Notes: generated by a model from the letters alone, not told the origin. A DNA stretch of 64,000 nucleotides from Escherichia coli (GCF_050320075.1 NZ_CP190018.1); one strand, 5' to 3'; shown: positions 2,041 through 44,630, numbered from the stretch's first letter. Numbers and translations: made by a program.

Positions 2041-5181
<3,141 letters not shown>

Positions 5182-5208
5182 GACTTCAGGAAGATATTAC
5201 GGAGATAT

Positions 5209-35232: not shown

Positions 35233-36585
35233 TTATGGTTTGAGTTTATACTTCTGACCATTAATGATTTTTTTGATTAACTCGAATGCAGCGGGGGAAT
35301 ATTTATGAACACCTTCCTTCCCCGTTTTCACTAGCACATGATAGTTATTATCTGAGGATTTAATATTAAAACCAGTTTCCTTGTGTATTCTTTCTAATAC
35401 TTTATGGACGTAATGCCAAGATCCCATATCAAGTAATTTTGCAAGTTCAGATATGGTGTAGGGATAGCTTGCGTTAAGTGCTTGCCCATTATTTAACTCT
35501 GCAATTCCATAAAGTTTCGCTAACACGTTATCTTGCTCAGCAATGTTCTTAAGCATTTCAAAATCATATGGAAGCTCTTGTTTTACAAGAGATTGAGAGG
35601 CAAATGTATAGGTTCTGGCTAATAGCGCCCTGACTAATTTTGGGTTAACACTGATTTCTGGCGTATTTGACGATAGGGCATCATAAATCCAACCGAAATC
35701 ATTGGCATAGATCACTTTGATTCGGATGCTTTTATTTTCACCAACACCAATCAAAATCTCTTTCTGGTGTGAACCTGTACCTTCACATTCTGGACTAAAG
35801 GAAACCAAATAAATATTCGGAATCAAAGCGTTATTTGGCGCAATTATCTCATCAATATCAGACAGGATGGCTTTAATATTCTCATCATTAATACTATAGC
35901 CAATGAAGAACAACGGATGCTCGACGAAATATGTTAATAGTTTTGCACTGATATACTTTTTACGCTTATAAAACTCAACATAGTCTTCATTTGTTATAAT
36001 GATGCTTTCTGGTTCTTTACTACTGCCGTGAATCTTCATGATTTCACCGTATGTAGTATAGTTAACAGTCACAACATTATGGCCAACTATCGGTTGGTAG
36101 TTATCAAATATCTTTTCAAGCAGATCGTCATAGTTTGTTGTAATAATGGCATGGGGCCTTACTTTTTTTAACTTTTCAATTTCTTCAGTGTACTCCATTG
36201 CTGAAAAATCAACCGAGTCTGAAAGGTTATTCAACAATGTTGCAATCTCATGCTTGATATATATATCTTTAGAGCTTTTTCCATTGAAATACTGTTCAGG
36301 ATAACGAGATGTCCCCACATCCCAAGCCCACTCAGCGTATGACTCAGAAAAATCACTTGCTATCATTGGTTTATTGTCATTTCTTGTTTGACTGTAGTAA
36401 CCATACGGGCGAGTGATTAATGGGCAAGTTTCAGCGAGATACTTTAACAGGTTTTCCCAATCAGGAGCTTTCAAGTAGCGTTGAGATACCCCTGCACCCA
36501 TAAAGAGAATTGGCTGTACCTGTAAACCTTCAAGACATGATTTGATATCTTCAATTATTTCTGTCTGATATTCAGAGAAGTCCAT
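35233..36585 (-). CDS. SIR2-like (SIR2_2 / ThsA-DSR-type) domain protein with uncharacterised C-terminal domain; candidate NAD+-depleting anti-phage effector
   Basis: 450 aa; SIR2_2 hallmarks PILFMGAGVS (res 25-34), IITTNYDDLLE (res 147-157, putative catalytic Asn151), KIHGS (His186), EHPLFFIGYSINDE (res 222-235); C-terminal about 190 aa with no recognised family; gene is markedly AT-rich. Confidence 0.75.
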   Translation of the reverse strand: MDFSEYQTEIIEDIKSCLEGLQVQPILFMGAGVSQRYLKAPDWENLLKYLAETCPLITRPYGYYSQTRNDNKPMIASDFSESYAEWAWDVGTSRYPEQYFNGKSSKDIYIKHEIATLLNNLSDSVDFSAMEYTEEIEKLKKVRPHAIITTNYDDLLEKIFDNYQPIVGHNVVTVNYTTYGEIMKIHGSSKEPESIIITNEDYVEFYKRKKYISAKLLTYFVEHPLFFIGYSINDENIKAILSDIDEIIAPNNALIPNIYLVSFSPECEGTGSHQKEILIGVGENKSIRIKVIYANDFGWIYDALSSNTPEISVNPKLVRALLARTYTFASQSLVKQELPYDFEMLKNIAEQDNVLAKLYGIAELNNGQALNASYPYTISELAKLLDMGSWHYVHKVLERIHKETGFNIKSSDNNYHVLVKTGKEGVHKYSPAAFELIKKIINGQKYKLKP

Positions 36586-36799
36586 ACTTTAGCCTTTAGG
36601 ATGTGAGATGCTGGAGTAGTAAATCGCCGCGGAGCGGTTCGGGGTTCTGTGACACCCGAATTTTACCTCGGTTTCCTTTGTATATAATATCATTGAAGTT
36701 ATTTGCATTTCTCAGAAATCTTCTCTGGCTTTGATTGCTATAGCCGAAAGATAGCGCACACTTCGCCGTTGGTCAGTTAGTACGAGGTTTCCGCCAAGT

Positions 36800-37835
36800 T
36801 CACCTTTTACCAAAGATGGCCTCAGAGCTTCCCTGAAGCTTTATCATGGTTTCAAGTAGGTCATCTTCGTTCAGTGAGCGCTGAGATTTGTTGATGCTAG
36901 GCGCGTGCCGTCTGCGGGAAGGCTCATCACCAGAACAAGGTAACGATAGTGAGCGATTATTGTCCCGTTTTCTCTGGACCTGACGGGCAACATCCAACAC
37001 ATGGCCAAGTCTCTTGTTATCTACAATGGCGACGGGCTCAACCTCAGAAAGCCGGTCATAGGTGGAGTAGGGTAGCAGCACGCCATTTAGTCGCAGCTCC
37101 TTATGTCCGTCAGGATAATGCCAGACATCAATATACTTGCCGATGGCTCTTCGACTGTACTCGTTGTCCTCAATCAGATAGAGCATTTTATCGTATTGTA
37201 CAGTCAGATTTTTTGATACCCGGCGAGGCTCTCGCCAGGTAAATTCTGCATCAAGGTCATCGTCTAATGCCAGCGGCCGGTACGCGTTAAAATCATGCAA
37301 GGGTTCTTTGGCAAAGCGCCGGTTATAATCCGCCATGTATTCTTCTGCAAATGCATTGGCCGCTTCTATTGTACAGATCCCCTTAAGCCTGAGCTCCTTA
37401 ACGAGTCGGTCCTGAAGTGTCAAATGAGCACGTTCAACGCGGCCTTTTGCCTGGCTGGTTTCAGCACACAAAGGAGTAATATTAAGGCAGCGCATGGCCC
37501 TGGCAAACTGGGTATCGCCGAGACCGGTGGTGGCGTGCTTATTATTGACTCTGAATACGCTGGCTTTATCGCTGTAGAGGATCATCGGTTTACCGTATTC
37601 AGTGGTGGTCGCAGCCATCAATTTGTATCAGCTCGCCAGTACAAGGACGCCGGTAACGAGGCTGATGAATTTTCGGTGCGCGTTGTCTGCGGGGGATCCA
37701 GAGTCCCGCGTTTATCATGAGACGTCGGATGGTTTCCTTTCCAAGGACCAGACCGTGAACTTCCTCCAGCTTTTCCCGCGCCAGCGTGGGGCCAAAATCA
37801 CGGTAGTGCTCCCGGATTATACTGAGTGCCTCCAA
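36800..37835 (-). mobile_element. Remnant IS element: DDE (integrase-core) transposase gene disrupted by a frameshift
   Basis: Two overlapping minus-strand ORFs (37599..37835 N-terminal HTH part ending …IQIDGCDHH; 36800..37621 catalytic part …ILYSDKASVF…AETSQAKGRVERAHLTLQ); family not confidently assigned (IS481/ISNCY-like); IS ends not identified. Confidence 0.6.
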
Positions 37836-38198
37836 TGAGCCACAAATAGAACATTAGCATTGAGCCTCTATAATTTTGGTGCGCATAATGTATATTATGT
37901 TAAATGTGGTGGGTTTGTTCTTAAGTTCATGTGTTCCGCTCTTTCAGTAGCTTAACTGATGAATCAGTCAGCAGCTCTTGCCGTGCAAGCTACGCGGCGG
38001 TTCGTACCAGATTGGCCACCTCCATCTCCTGGTTCGCTTTCCCCTCCCCCCGGTAAACCTCACCCAACGTTAATTAATGATGTCAGTATGTGGGCGCTAT
38101 CCTTGTATGTAAAATCCACTGACGATTACGCCCATCTGTGAAAAAAAACTCACAATGCCATTCGATGCATCTCCATACTGAACGAGGCGTTATCGTCT

Positions 38199-39098
38199 TT
38201 ATCGCCCCGTAGTGGATATCAGAAAATCAATCAGGGCCTTCACTCTTTTCGTTTTACCCGCGTTTTTGGGGTAATAGAGATACACTGGCGGGTAGGTTTT
38301 CCAGTATCTCTCCATCACCGGAATAAAGCGCTCCCTGTCCGGCTGTAACTGCCAGACAGGCTCAAACAAGCGCCCAATTCCCAGCCCGTTACGGATCCCG
38401 TCTGCCATAACGTCAATATCGTTGCTGATTAACTGCCCCGGCATCTCAACGGTCAACTGCTCACCGCGATCGTTCAGGAGCAGCGGAAGGATGCGGTTGT
38501 TGGTGATAAAACGGTAACCAATCAGCTGGTGATGACAGAGATCTGCCGGCACTTCAGGCGTTCCATGTCGGGAGAGATACGCTGAGGATGCATATAATCC
38601 TTCACGAAACGGTTTCATTAACGGTCGGGCCACCACCCCTCCCTCAAGAATATCGCCAAAACGGATCCCCAGATCAAAACGCTCTTTGATGATATTCACG
38701 GTACCGTCGTAGACCGAAATTTCTAACTGTATACCCGGATATTGCTGACAGAATTCTGCCATCGCAGGCTTAAGAATTAACAGGTAGGCAAAACGCGAGA
38801 GCGTAATTCGCACCATCCCAGAGGGCTCCTGATGCTGGTCGCGAATGCTTTCAAGTGAGTTTTCCAGCGACTCCACCGCCGCAGCGGTCTGTTCCAGCAA
38901 TAATTGACCGGTTTCCGTCAGCTCTATACGGCGGGTCGTACGCACAAAAAGCGGATGGCCGATATACTCTTCCAGCAGCTTTAGTGCATTGCTGACGGAG
39001 GGAGGCGTAATTTCCAGTTTCCTTGCGGCTGCCGAAATATTGCCCTCCCGCGCAATGCTCTGGAAGATGCGAATCTGGTTATAAAGAGCGTTATTCAT
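38199..39098 (-). CDS. LysR-family transcriptional regulator
   Basis: 299-aa protein; N-terminal HTH (IFQSIAREGNISAAARKLEITPPSVSNALKLLE); divergent from the oxidoreductase cluster. Confidence 0.85.
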   Translation of the reverse strand: MNNALYNQIRIFQSIAREGNISAAARKLEITPPSVSNALKLLEEYIGHPLFVRTTRRIELTETGQLLLEQTAAAVESLENSLESIRDQHQEPSGMVRITLSRFAYLLILKPAMAEFCQQYPGIQLEISVYDGTVNIIKERFDLGIRFGDILEGGVVARPLMKPFREGLYASSAYLSRHGTPEVPADLCHHQLIGYRFITNNRILPLLLNDRGEQLTVEMPGQLISNDIDVMADGIRNGLGIGRLFEPVWQLQPDRERFIPVMERYWKTYPPVYLYYPKNAGKTKRVKALIDFLISTTGR

Positions 39099-39233
39099 AA
39101 TGTTTTCCTAAGCAATTCTCGCCTGATTATTAAGTACAGTCTAAAAATGCTTAAGTCAATGACCCTCTAATCTTCCTGAAATACGCCTCTTATACTTTAG
39201 TCTCTTTCTACTACGACCTGAGTTCAGGAGACT

Positions 39234-39545
39234 ATGATGCGAATTTTATGTCTGGATATCCCTGCCCCTGGAGCATCGCTGGAGAAATATGCTCCGCACC
39301 TCAACGCTGAAGCGCTGCACGCCTGGGGATTGTATAAATCAGGCTTCATCCGCGACATCTACTTCCGTCAGGACAGACCTGGCGTCGCTATTTTTCTTGA
39401 ATGTGACTCTGTCGATGAAGCGATGAACGTTATGGCCGAATTCCCGTTGGCAAAAGCAGGCTTACTAAGCTTCGAGTGTATACCGCTTGGCTCCTTTATT
39501 AACTGGGAAAATCTCTTCGCCGATGAATTTAAAAATAAAGAGTGA
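39234..39545 (+). CDS. Muconolactone isomerase-like small protein (Dabb/YciI-like fold)
   Basis: 103-aa protein with pattern similar to CatC-type muconolactone delta-isomerases; family assignment tentative. Confidence 0.45.
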   Translation: MMRILCLDIPAPGASLEKYAPHLNAEALHAWGLYKSGFIRDIYFRQDRPGVAIFLECDSVDEAMNVMAEFPLAKAGLLSFECIPLGSFINWENLFADEFKNKE

Positions 39546-39553
39546 GGACCGAT

Positions 39554-40243
39554 ATGAAACCTGCATATAAACCAGTGCTATGTGTCGTTTCCAGCCATCC
39601 GATTAAAGGCGCATCCGGTGTACCAACCGGTTTTTTCCTGGCCGAGCTGACTCATCCGCTGAAAGTACTGGAAGATGCCGGAATAAAAACAACAATAGCC
39701 AGTATTCGCGGGGGGCAGCCACCGGTGGATGGATTTGACCTCAGCGACCCTGTTAACGCCTGGTACTGGAACGAAACCGATTTTCAGCAGCGCCTGGCAA
39801 CAACACCTGCGTTATCCGAGCTGAAAGGTGCCGATTACAGCGCAGTTTTCTTTGCAGGTGGTCATGGGACCATGTGGGATTTCCGTGATAATCAGGATGC
39901 CCAGCGTATTATCCGCGAAGTGTATGAAAGTGATGGGATTGTCTCAGCCGTCTGCCACGGGCCTGCGGCATTGGTTGACGCAAAACTCAGTAGCGGCGAA
40001 TACCTGATAAAAGGGAAAAATGTGGCGGCCTTTACCAACAAGGAAGAGGAAGAAGTTCACACAACAGATGTGGTTCCCTTCCTGCTTGAAACCGCACTTC
40101 GCGAGCATGGTGCGCTTTATCATGAAGCTCCAAACTGGTCTGAAAACGTGGTTACCGACGATCGCCTTATCACGGGGCAGAATCCCGCTTCAGCACATGG
40201 GGTTGGTGTGGCGCTGTTAAATGCACTCCGCCGGACAGCTTAA
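39554..40243 (+). CDS. DJ-1/PfpI-family (class I glutamine amidotransferase-like) protein
   Basis: About 229-aa protein with nucleophile-elbow context (SAVCHGPAAL); ORF track 39542..40243, ATG 39554 more likely. Confidence 0.7.
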   Translation: MKPAYKPVLCVVSSHPIKGASGVPTGFFLAELTHPLKVLEDAGIKTTIASIRGGQPPVDGFDLSDPVNAWYWNETDFQQRLATTPALSELKGADYSAVFFAGGHGTMWDFRDNQDAQRIIREVYESDGIVSAVCHGPAALVDAKLSSGEYLIKGKNVAAFTNKEEEEVHTTDVVPFLLETALREHGALYHEAPNWSENVVTDDRLITGQNPASAHGVGVALLNALRRTA

Positions 40244-40316
40244 TTAATTCATCGTTACTCACCTTACTTGGCCGGTTTAAGTCAGCCACGATCCGGCCTT
40301 TTTTCAGGAGCTGAAT

Positions 40317-41264
40317 ATGAAAACACTACCTCCAGTCGCACTAGGTACATGGTCCTGGGGCACAGGCTTTGCCGGCGGCGACACCGTCTTTGGTAATCAT
40401 CTTTCTGATACTCAGATGGCAGAAGTGTTCACTGCGGCCATGAGTAAGGGCCTCAATCTCTGGGATACCGCAGCAGTATATGGTATGGGGAGTTCCGAGA
40501 CTGCGCTGGGAGCATTAGTCCGTCAGTTTCCCCGCGAGAACATAATTTTATCCACCAAATTCACGCCGCAGATTGCGGACAAGCAGTCTGCGCAGCCTGT
40601 CAGCGATATGCTTGAGGCCAGCCTTGGGCGCCTGGGCGTGGACGCGATTGATATCTACTGGATCCATAATCCCCTCGACGTCGAAAAATGGACACCAGGA
40701 CTGATCCCACTTTTACAAAGCGGTAAGGTAAAACGCGTAGGTGTTTCCAACCACAATCTGGCACAAATCAGACGCGCCAATGAAATCCTTAACGCTTCCG
40801 GTTATTCCCTCAGTGCAGTACAAAATCACTACAGCCTGCTCTATCGCGCTTCTGAAGAGGCCGGGATCCTTGATTATTGCCGACAAAATAACATCACGTT
40901 CTTTGCTTACATGGTCCTGGAGCAAGGCGCGCTCAGTGGTCGTTATGATTCAAATCATCCCATGCCTGCCGGGAGTGGCCGGGCCGAAAGTTATAACGCA
41001 GTACTGCCGCAGATAGAAAGACTAACCGCCGCCATGAAAAAAATGGGAGCCGAAAGGAATGCCAGCGTGGCACAGATAGCCATCGCATGGGCTATTGCGA
41101 AAGGTACCCTTCCCCTCGTTGGTGCGACTAAAGTCCATCACGTTCTGGACGCCGCCTGCGCTTCAGACATCCAGTTACGCGATGAGGAAATCATCCTGCT
41201 GGAACAACTCGCCGCAGAGACCAGAGTGGATACACGAGGCGCCTGGGAAAAACCGATGGTGTAA
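40317..41264 (+). CDS. Aldo/keto reductase family oxidoreductase
   Basis: 315-aa protein with AKR features (LWDTAAVYG, VGVSNH). Confidence 0.8.
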   Translation: MKTLPPVALGTWSWGTGFAGGDTVFGNHLSDTQMAEVFTAAMSKGLNLWDTAAVYGMGSSETALGALVRQFPRENIILSTKFTPQIADKQSAQPVSDMLEASLGRLGVDAIDIYWIHNPLDVEKWTPGLIPLLQSGKVKRVGVSNHNLAQIRRANEILNASGYSLSAVQNHYSLLYRASEEAGILDYCRQNNITFFAYMVLEQGALSGRYDSNHPMPAGSGRAESYNAVLPQIERLTAAMKKMGAERNASVAQIAIAWAIAKGTLPLVGATKVHHVLDAACASDIQLRDEEIILLEQLAAETRVDTRGAWEKPMV

Positions 41265-41366
41265 AGCCCGTCCGGAACAGACTGTCATGAATGACACACA
41301 CGAACGGGCTGTTCCGGGTGATTCTAATCTGTATCACTTTTACTGCTTTGTATGAATGGTGAGAAT

Positions 41367-42044
41367 ATGAAAATCATTTGCCTCGAAGAACATTATCTCG
41401 ACAGCGAGTTAGGGCGAGCGTGTATGCCTGTTGCGCTTGAGCAGGCACCTTTCCTTGGCGACAGGGGGAAAACCGTCGCTGATGGTCATAATCCTGACCG
41501 ACTCCCTGCTTTCCCGCTTTAATAAACTGAATGTGCCACTCTATCTTCATCCCGGGTTACCGCTTAAAAGCGTACAGCAGGCCTACTTCACGGGCTTCAG
41601 CGCAGAGGTCAACGCCAGGCTTTCTATGTTTGCCTGGGGCTGGCATCACGAAGCGGGGATCCATTTGTTGCGGCTGATGTTATCGGGCGCATTTGATAAA
41701 TATCCCAACCTGCAGGTAATCAGTGGCCACTGGGGGGAGATGTTACCCTTCTGGCTCCAGCGTCTTGATGACAGCCTACCACTGGCTGCAACGGGTCTGT
41801 CACGCACGCTAACGAGAACCTTCCAGGAACACGTTTACGTTACCCCGTCATATGCTAACACTGCCGCACTTCCAGTTTATCTACGCGTTAATGGGTGCTG
41901 AAAGGATCCTGTTCTCCGTCGGTTATCCCTATCAGACCCCTGGACGGTGTAAAAACCTTTATAGACAGTCTGCCCGTCAACAAGGCTGAAAAAGAGGCCA
42001 TCGCGTTTCGCAATGCAGAACGTTTACTGGGCATCACGGTTTAG
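41367..42044 (+). pseudogene. Amidohydrolase-2 (ACMSD-like metal-dependent hydrolase) gene remnant with frameshifts
   Basis: N-terminal MKIICLEEHYLD… in one frame, central part (ORF 41431..41901) in another, C-terminal …FSVGYPYQ…NAERLLGITV in a third; total length too short for the family. Confidence 0.55.
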
Positions 42045-42194
42045 TTCACCGTTTCATGATGACTGAGCACATTGTGATCAGCCGACAATTATTAGTTTTT
42101 GCCTAAAAGTGAATGAGCCTTTACTGCTCTAAAAAAATAATGTTGTCACTCTATACTGGATTTAATATTCACCAAAGATGTTTAACTGATTGAA

Positions 42195-42767
42195 ATGAAA
42201 AATATCCTTGTTATTTCAGGTCATCCTGAGCTTACCCATTCCGTCGCCAATGCCACTATTCTTGATGAAGTGGAGACCGCCCTTCCCGATGTTGAGATTC
42301 GTCGTCTGGACAGGCTCTATCCGGATGGCAAATTCAACATCGCGGCGGAGCAGAAAAGCCTGCTCAGGGCCGATGTGATTGTCTGGCAGTTCCCTTTTTC
42401 CTGGTATGGGCTGCCAGGATTAATGAAAAAATGGCTGGACGAGGTCTTTGTTCACGGCTTCGCGCATGGCTCAACGGCGAAACTGGGCGGTAAAAAGCTG
42501 ATCCTCTCCTTTACAACGGGAGCGCCAGAGGAGCTCTATACCGTCGACAGTTTCTTTGGCCATACCATTGAAGAGTATCTTATTCCGTTCGAAACCACGG
42601 CAAGGCTGTGCAATCTTGAGCTGCTGGCGCCGGTTTATACCTGCGGTATCAGCTATGCCGACCGGGATGCCGACAAAATCGCGCAGCAAAAAACGCTTGC
42701 CCGGGAACACGCTTCAAGGCTTGTCGAACTGCTCAATTCCGTCGTGAATAATCCAGAGGGAGAATAA
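42195..42767 (+). CDS. Flavodoxin-like NAD(P)H:quinone oxidoreductase (KefF/MdaB/general stress protein 14-like)
   Basis: 190-aa protein; N-terminal MKNILVISGHP flavodoxin-like-fold signature. Confidence 0.7.
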   Translation: MKNILVISGHPELTHSVANATILDEVETALPDVEIRRLDRLYPDGKFNIAAEQKSLLRADVIVWQFPFSWYGLPGLMKKWLDEVFVHGFAHGSTAKLGGKKLILSFTTGAPEELYTVDSFFGHTIEEYLIPFETTARLCNLELLAPVYTCGISYADRDADKIAQQKTLAREHASRLVELLNSVVNNPEGE

Positions 42768-42769
42768 CA

Positions 42770-43789
42770 ATGCAGTATACCCGGCTCGGTAAAAGTGACT
42801 TACTTGTTTCCCGCATCTGCATGGGATGCATGGGGTTTGGCGATCCGTCGACGGGTCAGCATAGCTGGACGCTGGACGAAACAGCAAGCCGCGACATCAT
42901 TCGCTATGGCCTTGAAAAGGGCATCAACTTTTACGATACCGCTATAGCCTACCAGAATGGCTCCAGTGAGCGATACGTTGGCCGGGCATTACGGGAGATG
43001 GCGAAACGCGATGATATCGTCCTGGCCACCAAGTTTCTGCCGCGAACCCCCGCACAAATTGCCGGAGGGATCAGCGGAAAAGAGGCAATCGCTCAATCCC
43101 TTGACCAGAGCCTGAAGAATCTGGGGATGGACTATATCGACCTCTACATCTACCACATCTGGGATTACAACACGCCCATTATCGACGTGCTTGAAGCGTT
43201 ACATACCGCTGTTACTGCTGGCAAAGTACGATCTGTTGGTATTTCAAACTGCTATGCCTGGCAGCTGGCGAAGGCGAACGCCCTTGCTGAACGCGAAGGG
43301 CTGATGCCCTTTGTTTCCGTACAGAGCCACTACAATCTAATTATGCGCGAAGATGAACGGGAGCTCTTCGGCCTGTGCACTGAGGATAATATCGCAATGA
43401 CCCCCTATAGCGCGCTGGCCAGCGGCCGCCTCTCTCGTAAAGAAGGCTATACACGGCGAGCCACAGAGGATGACTATGCGCGTGGAAAATATGACAGCAC
43501 GGCTGAACAGGATCGCAGCATTATTGAGCGTGTAGCCGAACTGGCCGAACGCCATCTGGTGTCAATGACGGAAATATCTCTCGCTTGGCTGCTGACAAAA
43601 GTCACATCACCTGTCGTAGGGGCTACAAAAAAAGCTCATGTCGATGGCGCGGTAAACGCAGTAAATCTTCAACTAAGTCCGGAGGAAATTCAGTTTCTGG
43701 AAGAAACCTACCAGCCGCATGTTCTGACGGGGGTCATGGCGCAAAATACGCCGCAAACGAAAGATGTTAAGCAGGTCTGGATGCGATAG
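42770..43789 (+). CDS. Aldo/keto reductase family oxidoreductase
   Basis: 339-aa AKR (GINFYDTAIAYQNG, VGISN); start immediately follows the upstream stop. Confidence 0.8.
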   Translation: MQYTRLGKSDLLVSRICMGCMGFGDPSTGQHSWTLDETASRDIIRYGLEKGINFYDTAIAYQNGSSERYVGRALREMAKRDDIVLATKFLPRTPAQIAGGISGKEAIAQSLDQSLKNLGMDYIDLYIYHIWDYNTPIIDVLEALHTAVTAGKVRSVGISNCYAWQLAKANALAEREGLMPFVSVQSHYNLIMREDERELFGLCTEDNIAMTPYSALASGRLSRKEGYTRRATEDDYARGKYDSTAEQDRSIIERVAELAERHLVSMTEISLAWLLTKVTSPVVGATKKAHVDGAVNAVNLQLSPEEIQFLEETYQPHVLTGVMAQNTPQTKDVKQVWMR

Positions 43790-43904
43790 CCCTTATTCAC
43801 TTTTCCTCCTCTCGTCTTTGAGAGCGCCAGTAGCGGTCGGTTACGTTCTTACCAGCACCAGTTGATCGAACGTCTTAAACAGTAACGTCAGTAAAAAGAT
43901 CATC

Positions 43905-44630
43905 GTGAAAAAGACTTTTATGCTTTTAATTTGCATGCAAATAAGCAGCCCTGTCTTTGCAACAAAACCGGACGCGCCGAATAAGCCGGAGATGAATATC
44001 TTCGAGCTCGGCATCAGACCCGATCGGGACAACGACTTTGCAGACGTGGCCAGACAGACGATTTCCGCTTCGGTTGATCATGAAGCAGGTACACTGGCGA
44101 TGTATGCCCTGCAACGCAGCGACAATTCAGGTCAGGCATTCATGTTCGAACTCTATGAAAATGAGCGTGCTTATCGCAAACATCTCAATGCCGCCCCATA
44201 CAAAGCATTCGCTGCTCGTGCACCTGACATTATTGACAGGAAGAAGAAAATTACCCTGGAGCCACAGTTTCTGGGCGACAAACACATCATACCGAATGAA
44301 CGAACTATCAATAATCTGGTGATCGTCGAAGTAAAGCCTGAATTTCAGAGCGAATTTAGAAACATCGTCCTTCCTGAAATGGTCGAGTCGCTCAAAGTAG
44401 AGAAAGGCGTGTTAGCCATGTATGCCGGTACAGATTCAGAGACTCCAAAACGCTGGTATTTCTATGAGATTTACGCCAGTGAGGAGGATTATCAACTGCA
44501 CCGACAAACGCTGCACTTCCTGGATTACCTCAGGCAAACGGCGCATATGAGCGCCAGGAAGGACGCAATCCCGGTAAAACCGGTATTTCTTCGTAACAAA
44601 GGCGGAATCAAACAGGAGCCGCAACGTTGA
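43905..44630 (+). CDS. Putative secreted protein with tandem ABM (antibiotic-biosynthesis-monooxygenase-like) domains
   Basis: 241-aa ORF with N-terminal hydrophobic signal-like segment and two ABM-like halves (AMYALQR…FELYENERAY; AMYAGT…YEIYASEEDY); start uncertain. Confidence 0.5.
   Translation: MKKTFMLLICMQISSPVFATKPDAPNKPEMNIFELGIRPDRDNDFADVARQTISASVDHEAGTLAMYALQRSDNSGQAFMFELYENERAYRKHLNAAPYKAFAARAPDIIDRKKKITLEPQFLGDKHIIPNERTINNLVIVEVKPEFQSEFRNIVLPEMVESLKVEKGVLAMYAGTDSETPKRWYFYEIYASEEDYQLHRQTLHFLDYLRQTAHMSARKDAIPVKPVFLRNKGGIKQEPQR

Follow-up and report, generated by a model that had tools for sequence, protein, structure and literature searches.

A SIR2-like gene beside the Escherichia coli dif site is probably the passenger of a decayed transporter insertion sequence of the IS1202 family

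Introduction

The closest described relatives of the locus studied here are insertion sequences (IS) of the ISAba32/ISAjo2 subgroup of the IS1202 family. These elements insert in a fixed orientation on the XerC side of dif or pdif sites, at a distance of 5 bp, with the left inverted repeat (IRL) beside the XerC arm, and they have imperfect inverted repeats and a 5-bp target duplication (bioRxiv 10.1101/2022.12.17.520857; PMC10132070). For the family, the inverted repeats are published as 24–26 bp and the target duplication as 5–6 bp. Its transporter members (tIS) tISKpn21, 65, 63 and Rel10 carry one passenger gene of unknown function each, and circular forms have been reported only for ISKpn21 (bioRxiv 10.1101/2022.12.17.520857; PMC10132070).

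Here, we analyze a window of 64,000 nucleotides (GCF_050320075.1, NZ_CP190018.1), which is the region of the E. coli chromosome around hipBA. Coordinates refer to this window unless another locus is named, and the loci with which it was compared are numbered with the prefix L. An earlier note on this DNA had described a frameshifted transposase remnant on the promoter-proximal side of a SIR2-like gene. We conclude that remnant and gene very probably belong to one element, a dif-targeting transporter IS of the ISAba32/ISAjo2 subgroup of the IS1202 family that carries SIR2 as its passenger and whose transposase has since been inactivated.

The window element has the characters of the subgroup, namely transposase homology, inverted repeats, a 5-bp duplication and insertion 5 bp from the XerC arm, and its transposase, when intact, shares 71% amino acid identity with that of ISKpn21. 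Its SIR2 passenger lies between the transposase and the right inverted repeat (IRR) and was moved inside the inverted repeats, as in a tIS. tISKpn21 (2278 bp) is alike in its inverted-repeat architecture with TGT ends, in its 5-bp duplication, in its position 5 bp from the XerC arm with IRL proximal and in its single passenger gene between transposase and IRR. It differs in that this passenger is a 214-aa DUF6904 protein encoded on the opposite strand, whereas in the window element passenger and transposase share a strand and the passenger is a SIR2-like protein of 450 aa; tISKpn21 also lacks the 173-bp conserved spacer and the dif-like/terminator right-end module of the window element, and the window copy is dead. 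The ISAjo2/ISAba32-type IS of Acinetobacter share the family, the oriented targeting of XerC-XerD sites and the 5-bp duplication (PMC10132070), but they are about 1.5 kb and cargo-free, whereas the window element sits at the single chromosomal dif of E. coli.

Less closely related systems invite comparison as well. Acinetobacter dif modules and Tn7-like elements at attTn7 likewise place accessory or defense genes at a conserved 'safe' chromosomal site. A Xer-type site bounds the cargo on one side here as well, but the window cargo has only one such site, and that one is degenerate; the transposition machinery of Tn7 is unrelated to that of the window element. Filamentous prophages of the CTX/CUS-1 type (IMEX) occupy the same chromosomal dif, but the window element is without phage genes and uses a DDE transposase, not XerCD, for insertion.

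Results

The transposase is represented by two overlapping minus-strand ORFs, 37835–37599 (78 aa) and 37621–36800 (273 aa), which share 23 nt. Both match the NCBIfam model NF033594 (ISNCY transposase, ISNCY_2), the former at model positions 62–138 (E 7e-27, 94.5 bits) and the latter at positions 178–367 (E 8e-68, 229 bits). Each fragment falls below the whole-protein cut-off of this model (250 bits) because it is truncated. The IS481, IS3 and IS21 DDE models gave weaker NCBIfam matches to the remnant ORFs; a Pfam search of the two ORFs returned no match, and the family assignment came from NCBIfam. In genomes with the identical sequence, the PGAP label is 'ISNCY family transposase; frameshifted; incomplete; missing N-terminus.' No solved relative came up when the PDB was searched with the sequence of the intact transposase.

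The two NF033594 matches leave a 39-position gap (model positions 139–177), which suggests that sequence is missing there. We mapped the deletions by aligning the window to an intact relative on plasmid pECO-cbb3 (L002), which has a 466-aa transposase, and to the element of E. coli EC42405 (L053). Window 37831–37600 corresponds to L002 3001–3232 and window 37599–36627 to L002 3367–4339. Between these blocks, a clean 134-bp deletion at 37599/37600 (junction CACCACTG|AATACGG) has removed codons 156–200 and changed the frame. A second deletion of ~306 bp, at 37831/37832, has removed the 5'UTR and codons 1–78; homology to IRL stops and coding homology starts at one nucleotide, 37831. The HTH of the intact protein (residues 16–66; Pfam HTH_28) falls in the region deleted from the window copy.

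Two minus-strand parts remain. Of the 466-aa protein, part 1 (37600–37831) retains codons 79–155, among them that for the first catalytic Asp (in IQIDGCDHH); it is 98.3% identical to L002 3001–3232 and 94.4% identical to L053 3847–4078. Part 2 (36800–37599) holds codons 201–466 and the stop, including LYSDKASVF and GRVERAH; it aligns gap-free to L002 3367–4166 with 98.8–98.9% identity, and its protein runs colinear with that of the intact transposase, 259/265 residues being identical.

These coordinates and the NF033594 matches bear out the earlier note's view that the two ORFs represent one DDE transposase, and they settle its question about similarity to IS transposases in the affirmative. 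The note had also placed a frameshift near 37600–37620, in a protein made up of an HTH and a DDE core. The frame is indeed broken there, and the 'frameshift' exists because of the 134-bp deletion, which took 45 codons of the catalytic core; the lesion is this deletion at 37599/37600 plus the ~306-bp deletion at 37831. The DDE pieces are present, and the main N-terminal HTH (residues 16–66) is gone. A single uninterrupted ORF of 400–500 aa that combines an N-terminal HTH with a DDE core is absent from the window copy and present in the EC42405 sibling (466 aa). The element is degraded, as the note had proposed, its transposase being non-functional by two deletions; the comparison with intact copies that it had advised, run against pECO-cbb3 and EC42405, placed both of them. 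Sequencing error, which it had considered as a cause, does not account for the break: the remnant sequence is 100% identical over 1701 bp in all 30 assemblies listed, and 213 records cover at least 80%. A break that is identical across many genomes is therefore not a sequencing error. As a member of the IS1202 family, the window copy is dead.

The ends of the element were defined by comparison with an empty site and by the inverted repeats. In strain GN02461 (L007) the site is empty: colinearity with the window runs to 35110 and resumes at 37873, the two stretches overlapping by 5 bp. The boundaries at 35110/35111 and 37872/37873 therefore delimit an element of 2762 bp, 35111–37872. The empty site of GN02461 lacks both the transposase and SIR2 and has a single ATGTT/AACAT beside the XerC arm.

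Just outside the left end, the 28-mer GGTGCGCATAATGTATATTATGTTAAAT (37878–37905) matches the published E. coli dif exactly (PMC3603311). On the plus strand it reads GGTGCGCATAA-TGTATA-TTATGTTAAAT (XerC arm, spacer, XerD arm), and it has been left intact. This is the sole site with 0 mismatches in a dif scan of the window, it is also present at the GN02461 empty site, and the cumulative GC skew of the window has its maximum at 34–38 kb, where dif lies. The left end is 5 bp from the XerC arm, with IRL proximal, and hipA lies beyond the opposite end. The dif-proximal copy of the 5-bp target duplication (37873–37877) is ATTTT on the plus strand, or AAAAT in element orientation, and the hipA-proximal copy (35106–35110) is ATGTT on the plus strand. 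The duplication in the window is 4/5 matching (AAAAT vs the original AACAT), with one substitution in the dif-proximal copy.

IRL (37831–37872, minus strand; TATAGAGGCTCAATGCTAATGTTCTATTTGTGGCTCATTGGA) pairs with IRR (35111–35152, plus strand; outer end TGTCAAAGCTCAGTG...) and is homologous to the IRL of L002, L004, L026 and L053. Position 2 of IRL is mutated in the window, so that it starts with TAT where intact copies have TGT. The identical IRR ends elements with perfect 5-bp duplications in L004, L026, L012 and L053. An inverted-repeat search paired 37831–37865 with 35118–35152, beyond the SIR2 gene (35 nt, 71%), and the two ends of the window element (TGTCAAAGCTCAGTG... and TATAGAGGCTCAATG...) match at 30/45 positions with gaps. 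In the alignment to the intact relative, 40 bp of the window (37870–37831) match the left end of the element. BLAST for inverted repeats near the transposase in the plasmid copy found none, because the true right end lies past the cargo.

We searched for an intact sibling using the window element with both deletions repaired as the query. Single-piece, full-length matches were found in two E. coli chromosomes, EC42405 and R32_14_1F, with the insertion at the same site. The order in EC42405 is dif, AACAT, IRL (TGTAGAGG...), the 466-aa transposase, spacer, SIR2, right-end module, IRR, AACAT and hipA. This element (NZ_CP043414.1, about 2574744–2577936) is 3193 bp long and has a perfect AACAT duplication and inverted repeats that match at 32/44 positions, with TGT at both ends. 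Its transposase scores 472 bits on NF033594 (intact homologues, 472–477 bits), its SIR2 protein is identical to the window SIR2 at 448/450 aa, and its cargo is 99.5% identical in nucleotides. The EC42405 arrangement therefore makes the transposase and SIR2 one mobile unit with no further partner gene, and the window copy is a decayed form of this EC42405-type unit. The doubly deleted form occurs in ~210 of 5426 complete E. coli genomes (roughly 4%).

The ends and the sibling change the earlier picture of an element without recognizable termini next to a SIR2-like gene. Both terminal inverted repeats are present and nearly intact, with IRL at 37872–37831 and IRR at 35111–35152, outside the interval first described; they had gone unseen since the right one does not adjoin the transposase, and dif had been missed as the insertion point. 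The idea that the remnant marks where SIR2 was acquired was correct, as SIR2 lies inside the inverted repeats and is absent together with the transposase from the empty site. SIR2 is the element's passenger and not a gene adjoining it, and the possible loss of a partner gene finds no counterpart in the intact EC42405 copy, which holds the transposase and SIR2 only.

The element is a mosaic. Its transposase is 98.3–98.9% identical to that of a plasmid element with AbiJ cargo and 91.5–94.4% identical to that of EC42405, and its SIR2 is 99.5% identical to that of EC42405. From these identities, its history includes recombination between elements or independent insertions and is not simple linear decay; as judged from the sequences, the mosaic indicates probable recombination between elements in their conserved flanks. 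On the IncFIB plasmid pRHB30-C10_5 (L003), positions 3908–5201 are a 99% copy of window 37954–36700, including dif and the doubly deleted transposase. This copy of a chromosomal segment is joined to a 43-bp piece of SIR2 (36167–36125), and a chromosomal dif fragment has apparently moved to this plasmid.

The cargo segment (35233–36627, minus strand) consists of a 42-nt leader and an intact SIR2-like gene (CDS 36585–35233, 450 aa); homology to elements with other cargo ends at 36627 and 35231. The protein matches Pfam SIR2_2 (E 4e-26) and, at residues 10–354, the PADLOC candidate single-gene system PDC-S25 (PDLC04968; E 2e-82). Only its SIR2 core (about residues 130–250) aligns to ThsA and DSR2 models and structures, and it likewise resembles DSR1/2 and KomC. 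Pfam detected no SLOG domain in the protein, SIR2_2 being the only domain found. In Thoeris, by contrast, ThsA is a SIR2 fused to SLOG and has a ThsB partner, whereas the window cargo is without SLOG and the intact element has no second cargo gene; DSR1/DSR2 are about 1000 aa or more, compared with 450 aa here. Since the likeness is limited to the SIR2 core, the cargo is not Thoeris or DSR, and ThsA and DSR2 were both rejected as identities for a protein of different size and domains. By its homology, the SIR2-like protein may act as an NAD-consuming anti-phage effector.

SIR2 homologues with 78–79% amino acid identity exist without any transposase (L008, L009 and L010). E. coli NCTC122 (L008, beside ypjA) and a Pantoea agglomerans plasmid (L010) have kept the spacer, the dif-like module and IRR and have lost the transposase. 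Pantoea sp. 1.19 (L042) has kept SIR2, spacer, dif-like module and IRR; its transposase is interrupted by about 1.9 kb, and the locus adjoins a dif-like site. The SIR2 homologues of L008, L010 and L042 are about 73–75% identical in nucleotides. From these homologues with decayed flanks, the association of SIR2 with the transposon is of long standing, and it has repeatedly fallen into decay.

Between the transposase stop and the cargo lies a conserved non-coding spacer of ~173 bp (36628–36799, minus strand), 98% shared with elements that bear different cargo. A 38-nt block within it, GAGAAATGCAAATAACTTCAATGATATTATATACAAAG (36676–36713, minus strand), is almost fully invariant, its last 5 nt being absent from EC42405, and the block core (36681–36701) is conserved in 6/6 aligned elements, even where overall identity is about 75%. 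A small hairpin, ACCGCTCCGCGG (36627–36638, minus strand), sits exactly at the left cargo boundary. From its conservation, we infer that the block at 36676–36713 may be a promoter or regulatory signal that drives the same-strand cargo; a protein-binding site is another possible role for the block and the hairpin. A sigma-70/terminator consensus scan of 35000–38000 returned 7 promoter-like sites against 6.6 expected and missed the strong right-end hairpin, and an Rfam search (E ≤ 1) of 34900–38200 found no known RNA.

At the other cargo boundary, the right-end module (35153–35232, minus strand) combines a dif-like motif, a terminator-like hairpin and a half-site, ATATGTTGAAA. The dif-like motif (35204–35230) comes directly after the SIR2 stop codon, inverted relative to dif, and reads GGTTCGCATAA-TGACG-TTATGCTAAAG with a 5-bp spacer; it has 3 mismatches in 22 positions in the dif scan, and by our own calculation the chance expectation of such a motif in the element is about 4e-5. 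The terminator-like hairpin (35168–35206) has a 17-bp stem followed by a T-run (RNA fold −48.4 kcal/mol, z −5.8). The right-end 123 bp recur with 98% identity after a different cargo gene in L002. No second dif-like site with ≤4 mismatches was found at the left cargo boundary (36621–36627), and the cargo is therefore not a classical dif module.

E. coli F11 (L051/L054, NZ_CP076123.1 1646400–1662000) carries tandem filamentous prophages (Inovirus-like; Zot/pII/secretin) at dif beside hipA. Their attP reads GGTGCGCATAA TGTACGACTCG TTATGTTGAAA, stem, CTTTAGCATAA CGTCA TTATGCGAACC, and the right-end module is about 88% identical to this region. The full F11 attP has two inverted dif-like sites around the same stem. 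Of these parts, the transposon right end has only the stem, the second site (spacer of 5 bp) and a portion of the first XerD arm; IRR takes the place of the first XerC arm and its spacer, which leaves the two-site attP hairpin incomplete, and the pair of inverted dif-like sites that marks a CTX-type IMEX attP, flanking a stem and able to form a XerCD substrate, is not found here. In a phage collection, the right-end module had no close match, the best being 73% over 88 nt in P2-like phages. With low confidence, we suggest that an ancestor of this sub-lineage may have arisen by fusion of an IS at dif with the end of a neighboring IMEX prophage. As a separate observation, different small genes abut the second dif-like site in the two F11 prophage copies.

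The family was surveyed at 40 loci from species-representative genomes. In other genera, 22 related loci have the transposase preceded, 81–132 bp upstream, by a dif or dif-like site (0–4 mismatches) of like orientation. Half of these (11/22) have IRL/IRR pairs and perfect 5-bp duplications, with element sizes of 1567 bp (no cargo), 2278 bp (ISKpn21) and up to 7206 bp. Close relatives of the window element keep the spacer that follows the transposase stop (36802–36628) and the 123-bp right end (98% identical) and have different genes between them. On many IncF plasmids the alternative cargo is an AbiJ_NTD4/DUF7014 protein of the STM4504/CBY_0614 family; on pO111_1 it is Shedu SduA, in the same position as SIR2. 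More distant members carry a MarR-GNAT fusion, GrpB, DUF6904 (ISKpn21) or a LysR/SDR/ADH/hydrolase cluster. Among Erwinia/Providencia relatives (L013 7438–11595 and L020 7440–11246), one carries an SMC-like ATPase, a GHKL ATPase and a receiver (REC)-TCAD9 protein ('ternary conflict system' domain), and the other carries a 1268-aa CHAT-domain protein; PADLOC recognized neither of these two cargos as a complete system. In E. coli CX08 (L052 7716–13036), a different IS1202-family transporter IS, with an ISLad2-type transposase, occupies the same dif with a cargo of four genes (a TPR protein, an FRG-domain protein (PDC-S15, 2e-99) and two unknowns). The cargo is thus diverse and often, not always, defense-like. 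Our literature search for IS1202 or dif-passenger elements together with defense found no prior description of defense cargo.

Two neighboring arrangements were also recorded. In CX08, a P2-like prophage lies just past dif. On pECO-cbb3 (L002 336–5468), tISKpn21 comes after a perfect E. coli-type dif, and the element with AbiJ-like cargo begins 5 bp beyond tISKpn21, so that two different transporter IS stand in tandem at a single site; the pentamers that flank them, AACAT/AAGTC/AAGTC, do not all match.

To the right of dif (38199–44000), the window contains, among others, genes for a LysR regulator, a glutamine amidotransferase-like protein and aldo/keto reductases, reaching as far as a truncated HTH gene. 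These genes appear to be missing from the sampled K-12 strains, whose listed matches to window 34400–38600 cover the hipA side only and end near 35113, and the dif-flanking region appears variable between E. coli lineages. In the island right of dif, two plus-strand ORFs of 56 and 156 aa overlap at 41352–41901; identical genomes list them as 'hypothetical protein' and a short 'amidohydrolase family protein,' and they look like a split or truncated amidohydrolase gene.

Discussion

The reading of this locus as a transporter IS builds on what was observed of its anatomy, ends, target site and deletions, of its intact sibling and of the differing cargos in its relatives. The points against it are the imperfect duplication (AAAAT vs AACAT), an IRL that starts with TAT and not TGT, the mosaic identities, and the SIR2 homologues that are free of transposase. 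These homologues, together with the broken transposase, would also suit an isolated, end-less, frameshifted IS remnant beside an independently acquired SIR2 gene. We consider this very unlikely, given that both inverted repeats and the target duplication bracket SIR2, that the empty site is without transposase and SIR2 together, and that an intact unit of transposase and SIR2 with a perfect duplication exists. It is similarly hard to credit that the transposase is functional, either through programmed ribosomal frameshifting (IS3/IS1-like) or behind a sequencing or assembly error. The 23-nt overlap of the ORFs is what such a view could draw on, but 134 bp with 45 catalytic-core codons, as well as the first 78 codons, are physically absent, intact family members have one continuous 466-aa ORF, and the same sequence occurs in about 210 independent complete genomes; we see next to no chance that this view is right. 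An IS3/IS1-type programmed-frameshift transposase was accordingly rejected, the overlap having been made by the 134-bp deletion.

A two-event origin is improbable, and we keep a small probability on it mainly because of the mosaic identities. Under such a history, a transposase-free remnant of SIR2, module and IRR would have been at dif first, a related IS or transposase segment would have come later, and the unit would never have moved whole here. Transposase identity is about 99% to the plasmid element and 91–94% to EC42405, that of SIR2 is 99.5% to EC42405, and transposase-free remnants do exist (NCTC122 and the Pantoea plasmid). However, a fresh insertion would place its own IRR between the transposase and SIR2, where there is none, and the spacer continues unbroken into the cargo, exactly as in EC42405. 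The mosaic would also come about more simply from homologous recombination between related elements in the conserved spacer and ends.

In the transporter IS that we consider very probable, the intact form (3193 bp) comprises IRL, a transposase of 466 aa (N-terminal HTH, DDE core), the spacer, SIR2, the dif-like/terminator module and IRR. This element would have transposed as one unit, and the literature on the family suggests copy-out/paste-in via a circular intermediate, with recognition of the XerC side of dif at insertion. It came to lie beside hipA, its IRL toward dif and 5 bp away from the XerC arm; AACAT was duplicated and dif was left intact. Later, in this lineage, the ~306-bp deletion took the promoter/5'UTR and codons 1–78, including the HTH; the 134-bp deletion took codons 156–200 and changed the frame; and a point change altered the second base of IRL. 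The transposase deletions and the IRL change leave the element immobile, with the cargo gene still full-length and conserved. SIR2 is presumably expressed from the conserved spacer.

A wider interpretation is speculative, and we lean against it at present. In it, dif-targeting IS1202-family transposons might be a general modular vehicle for accessory, often anti-phage genes, which would occupy a slot between the spacer and a right end derived from a CUS-1/CTX-phage attP. dif and the dif-like sites of plasmids might then be a landing pad shared by transposons and Xer phages, possibly with Xer-assisted swapping of cargo. The defense-type cargos behind this interpretation are SIR2/PDC-S25, Shedu, AbiJ-like, CHAT, the TCAD9 ternary system and FRG/PDC-S15.

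For annotation, our results suggest that 'ISNCY pseudogenes' beside dif are best interpreted along with the gene downstream of them and the inverted repeat at the far end. The interest of the locus lies mainly in the defense-type cargos, the cargo modularity and the putatively phage-attP-derived end. Altogether, the element explains how roughly 4% of complete E. coli genomes gained a SIR2-like candidate defense gene beside hipBA: it came in on a transposon whose target, dif, is the one site that no chromosome can do without. The published dif-hunting IS1202 subgroup is now extended to the E. coli chromosome, and its 'hypothetical' passenger slot can take recognizable defense genes and be re-used with different cargos.
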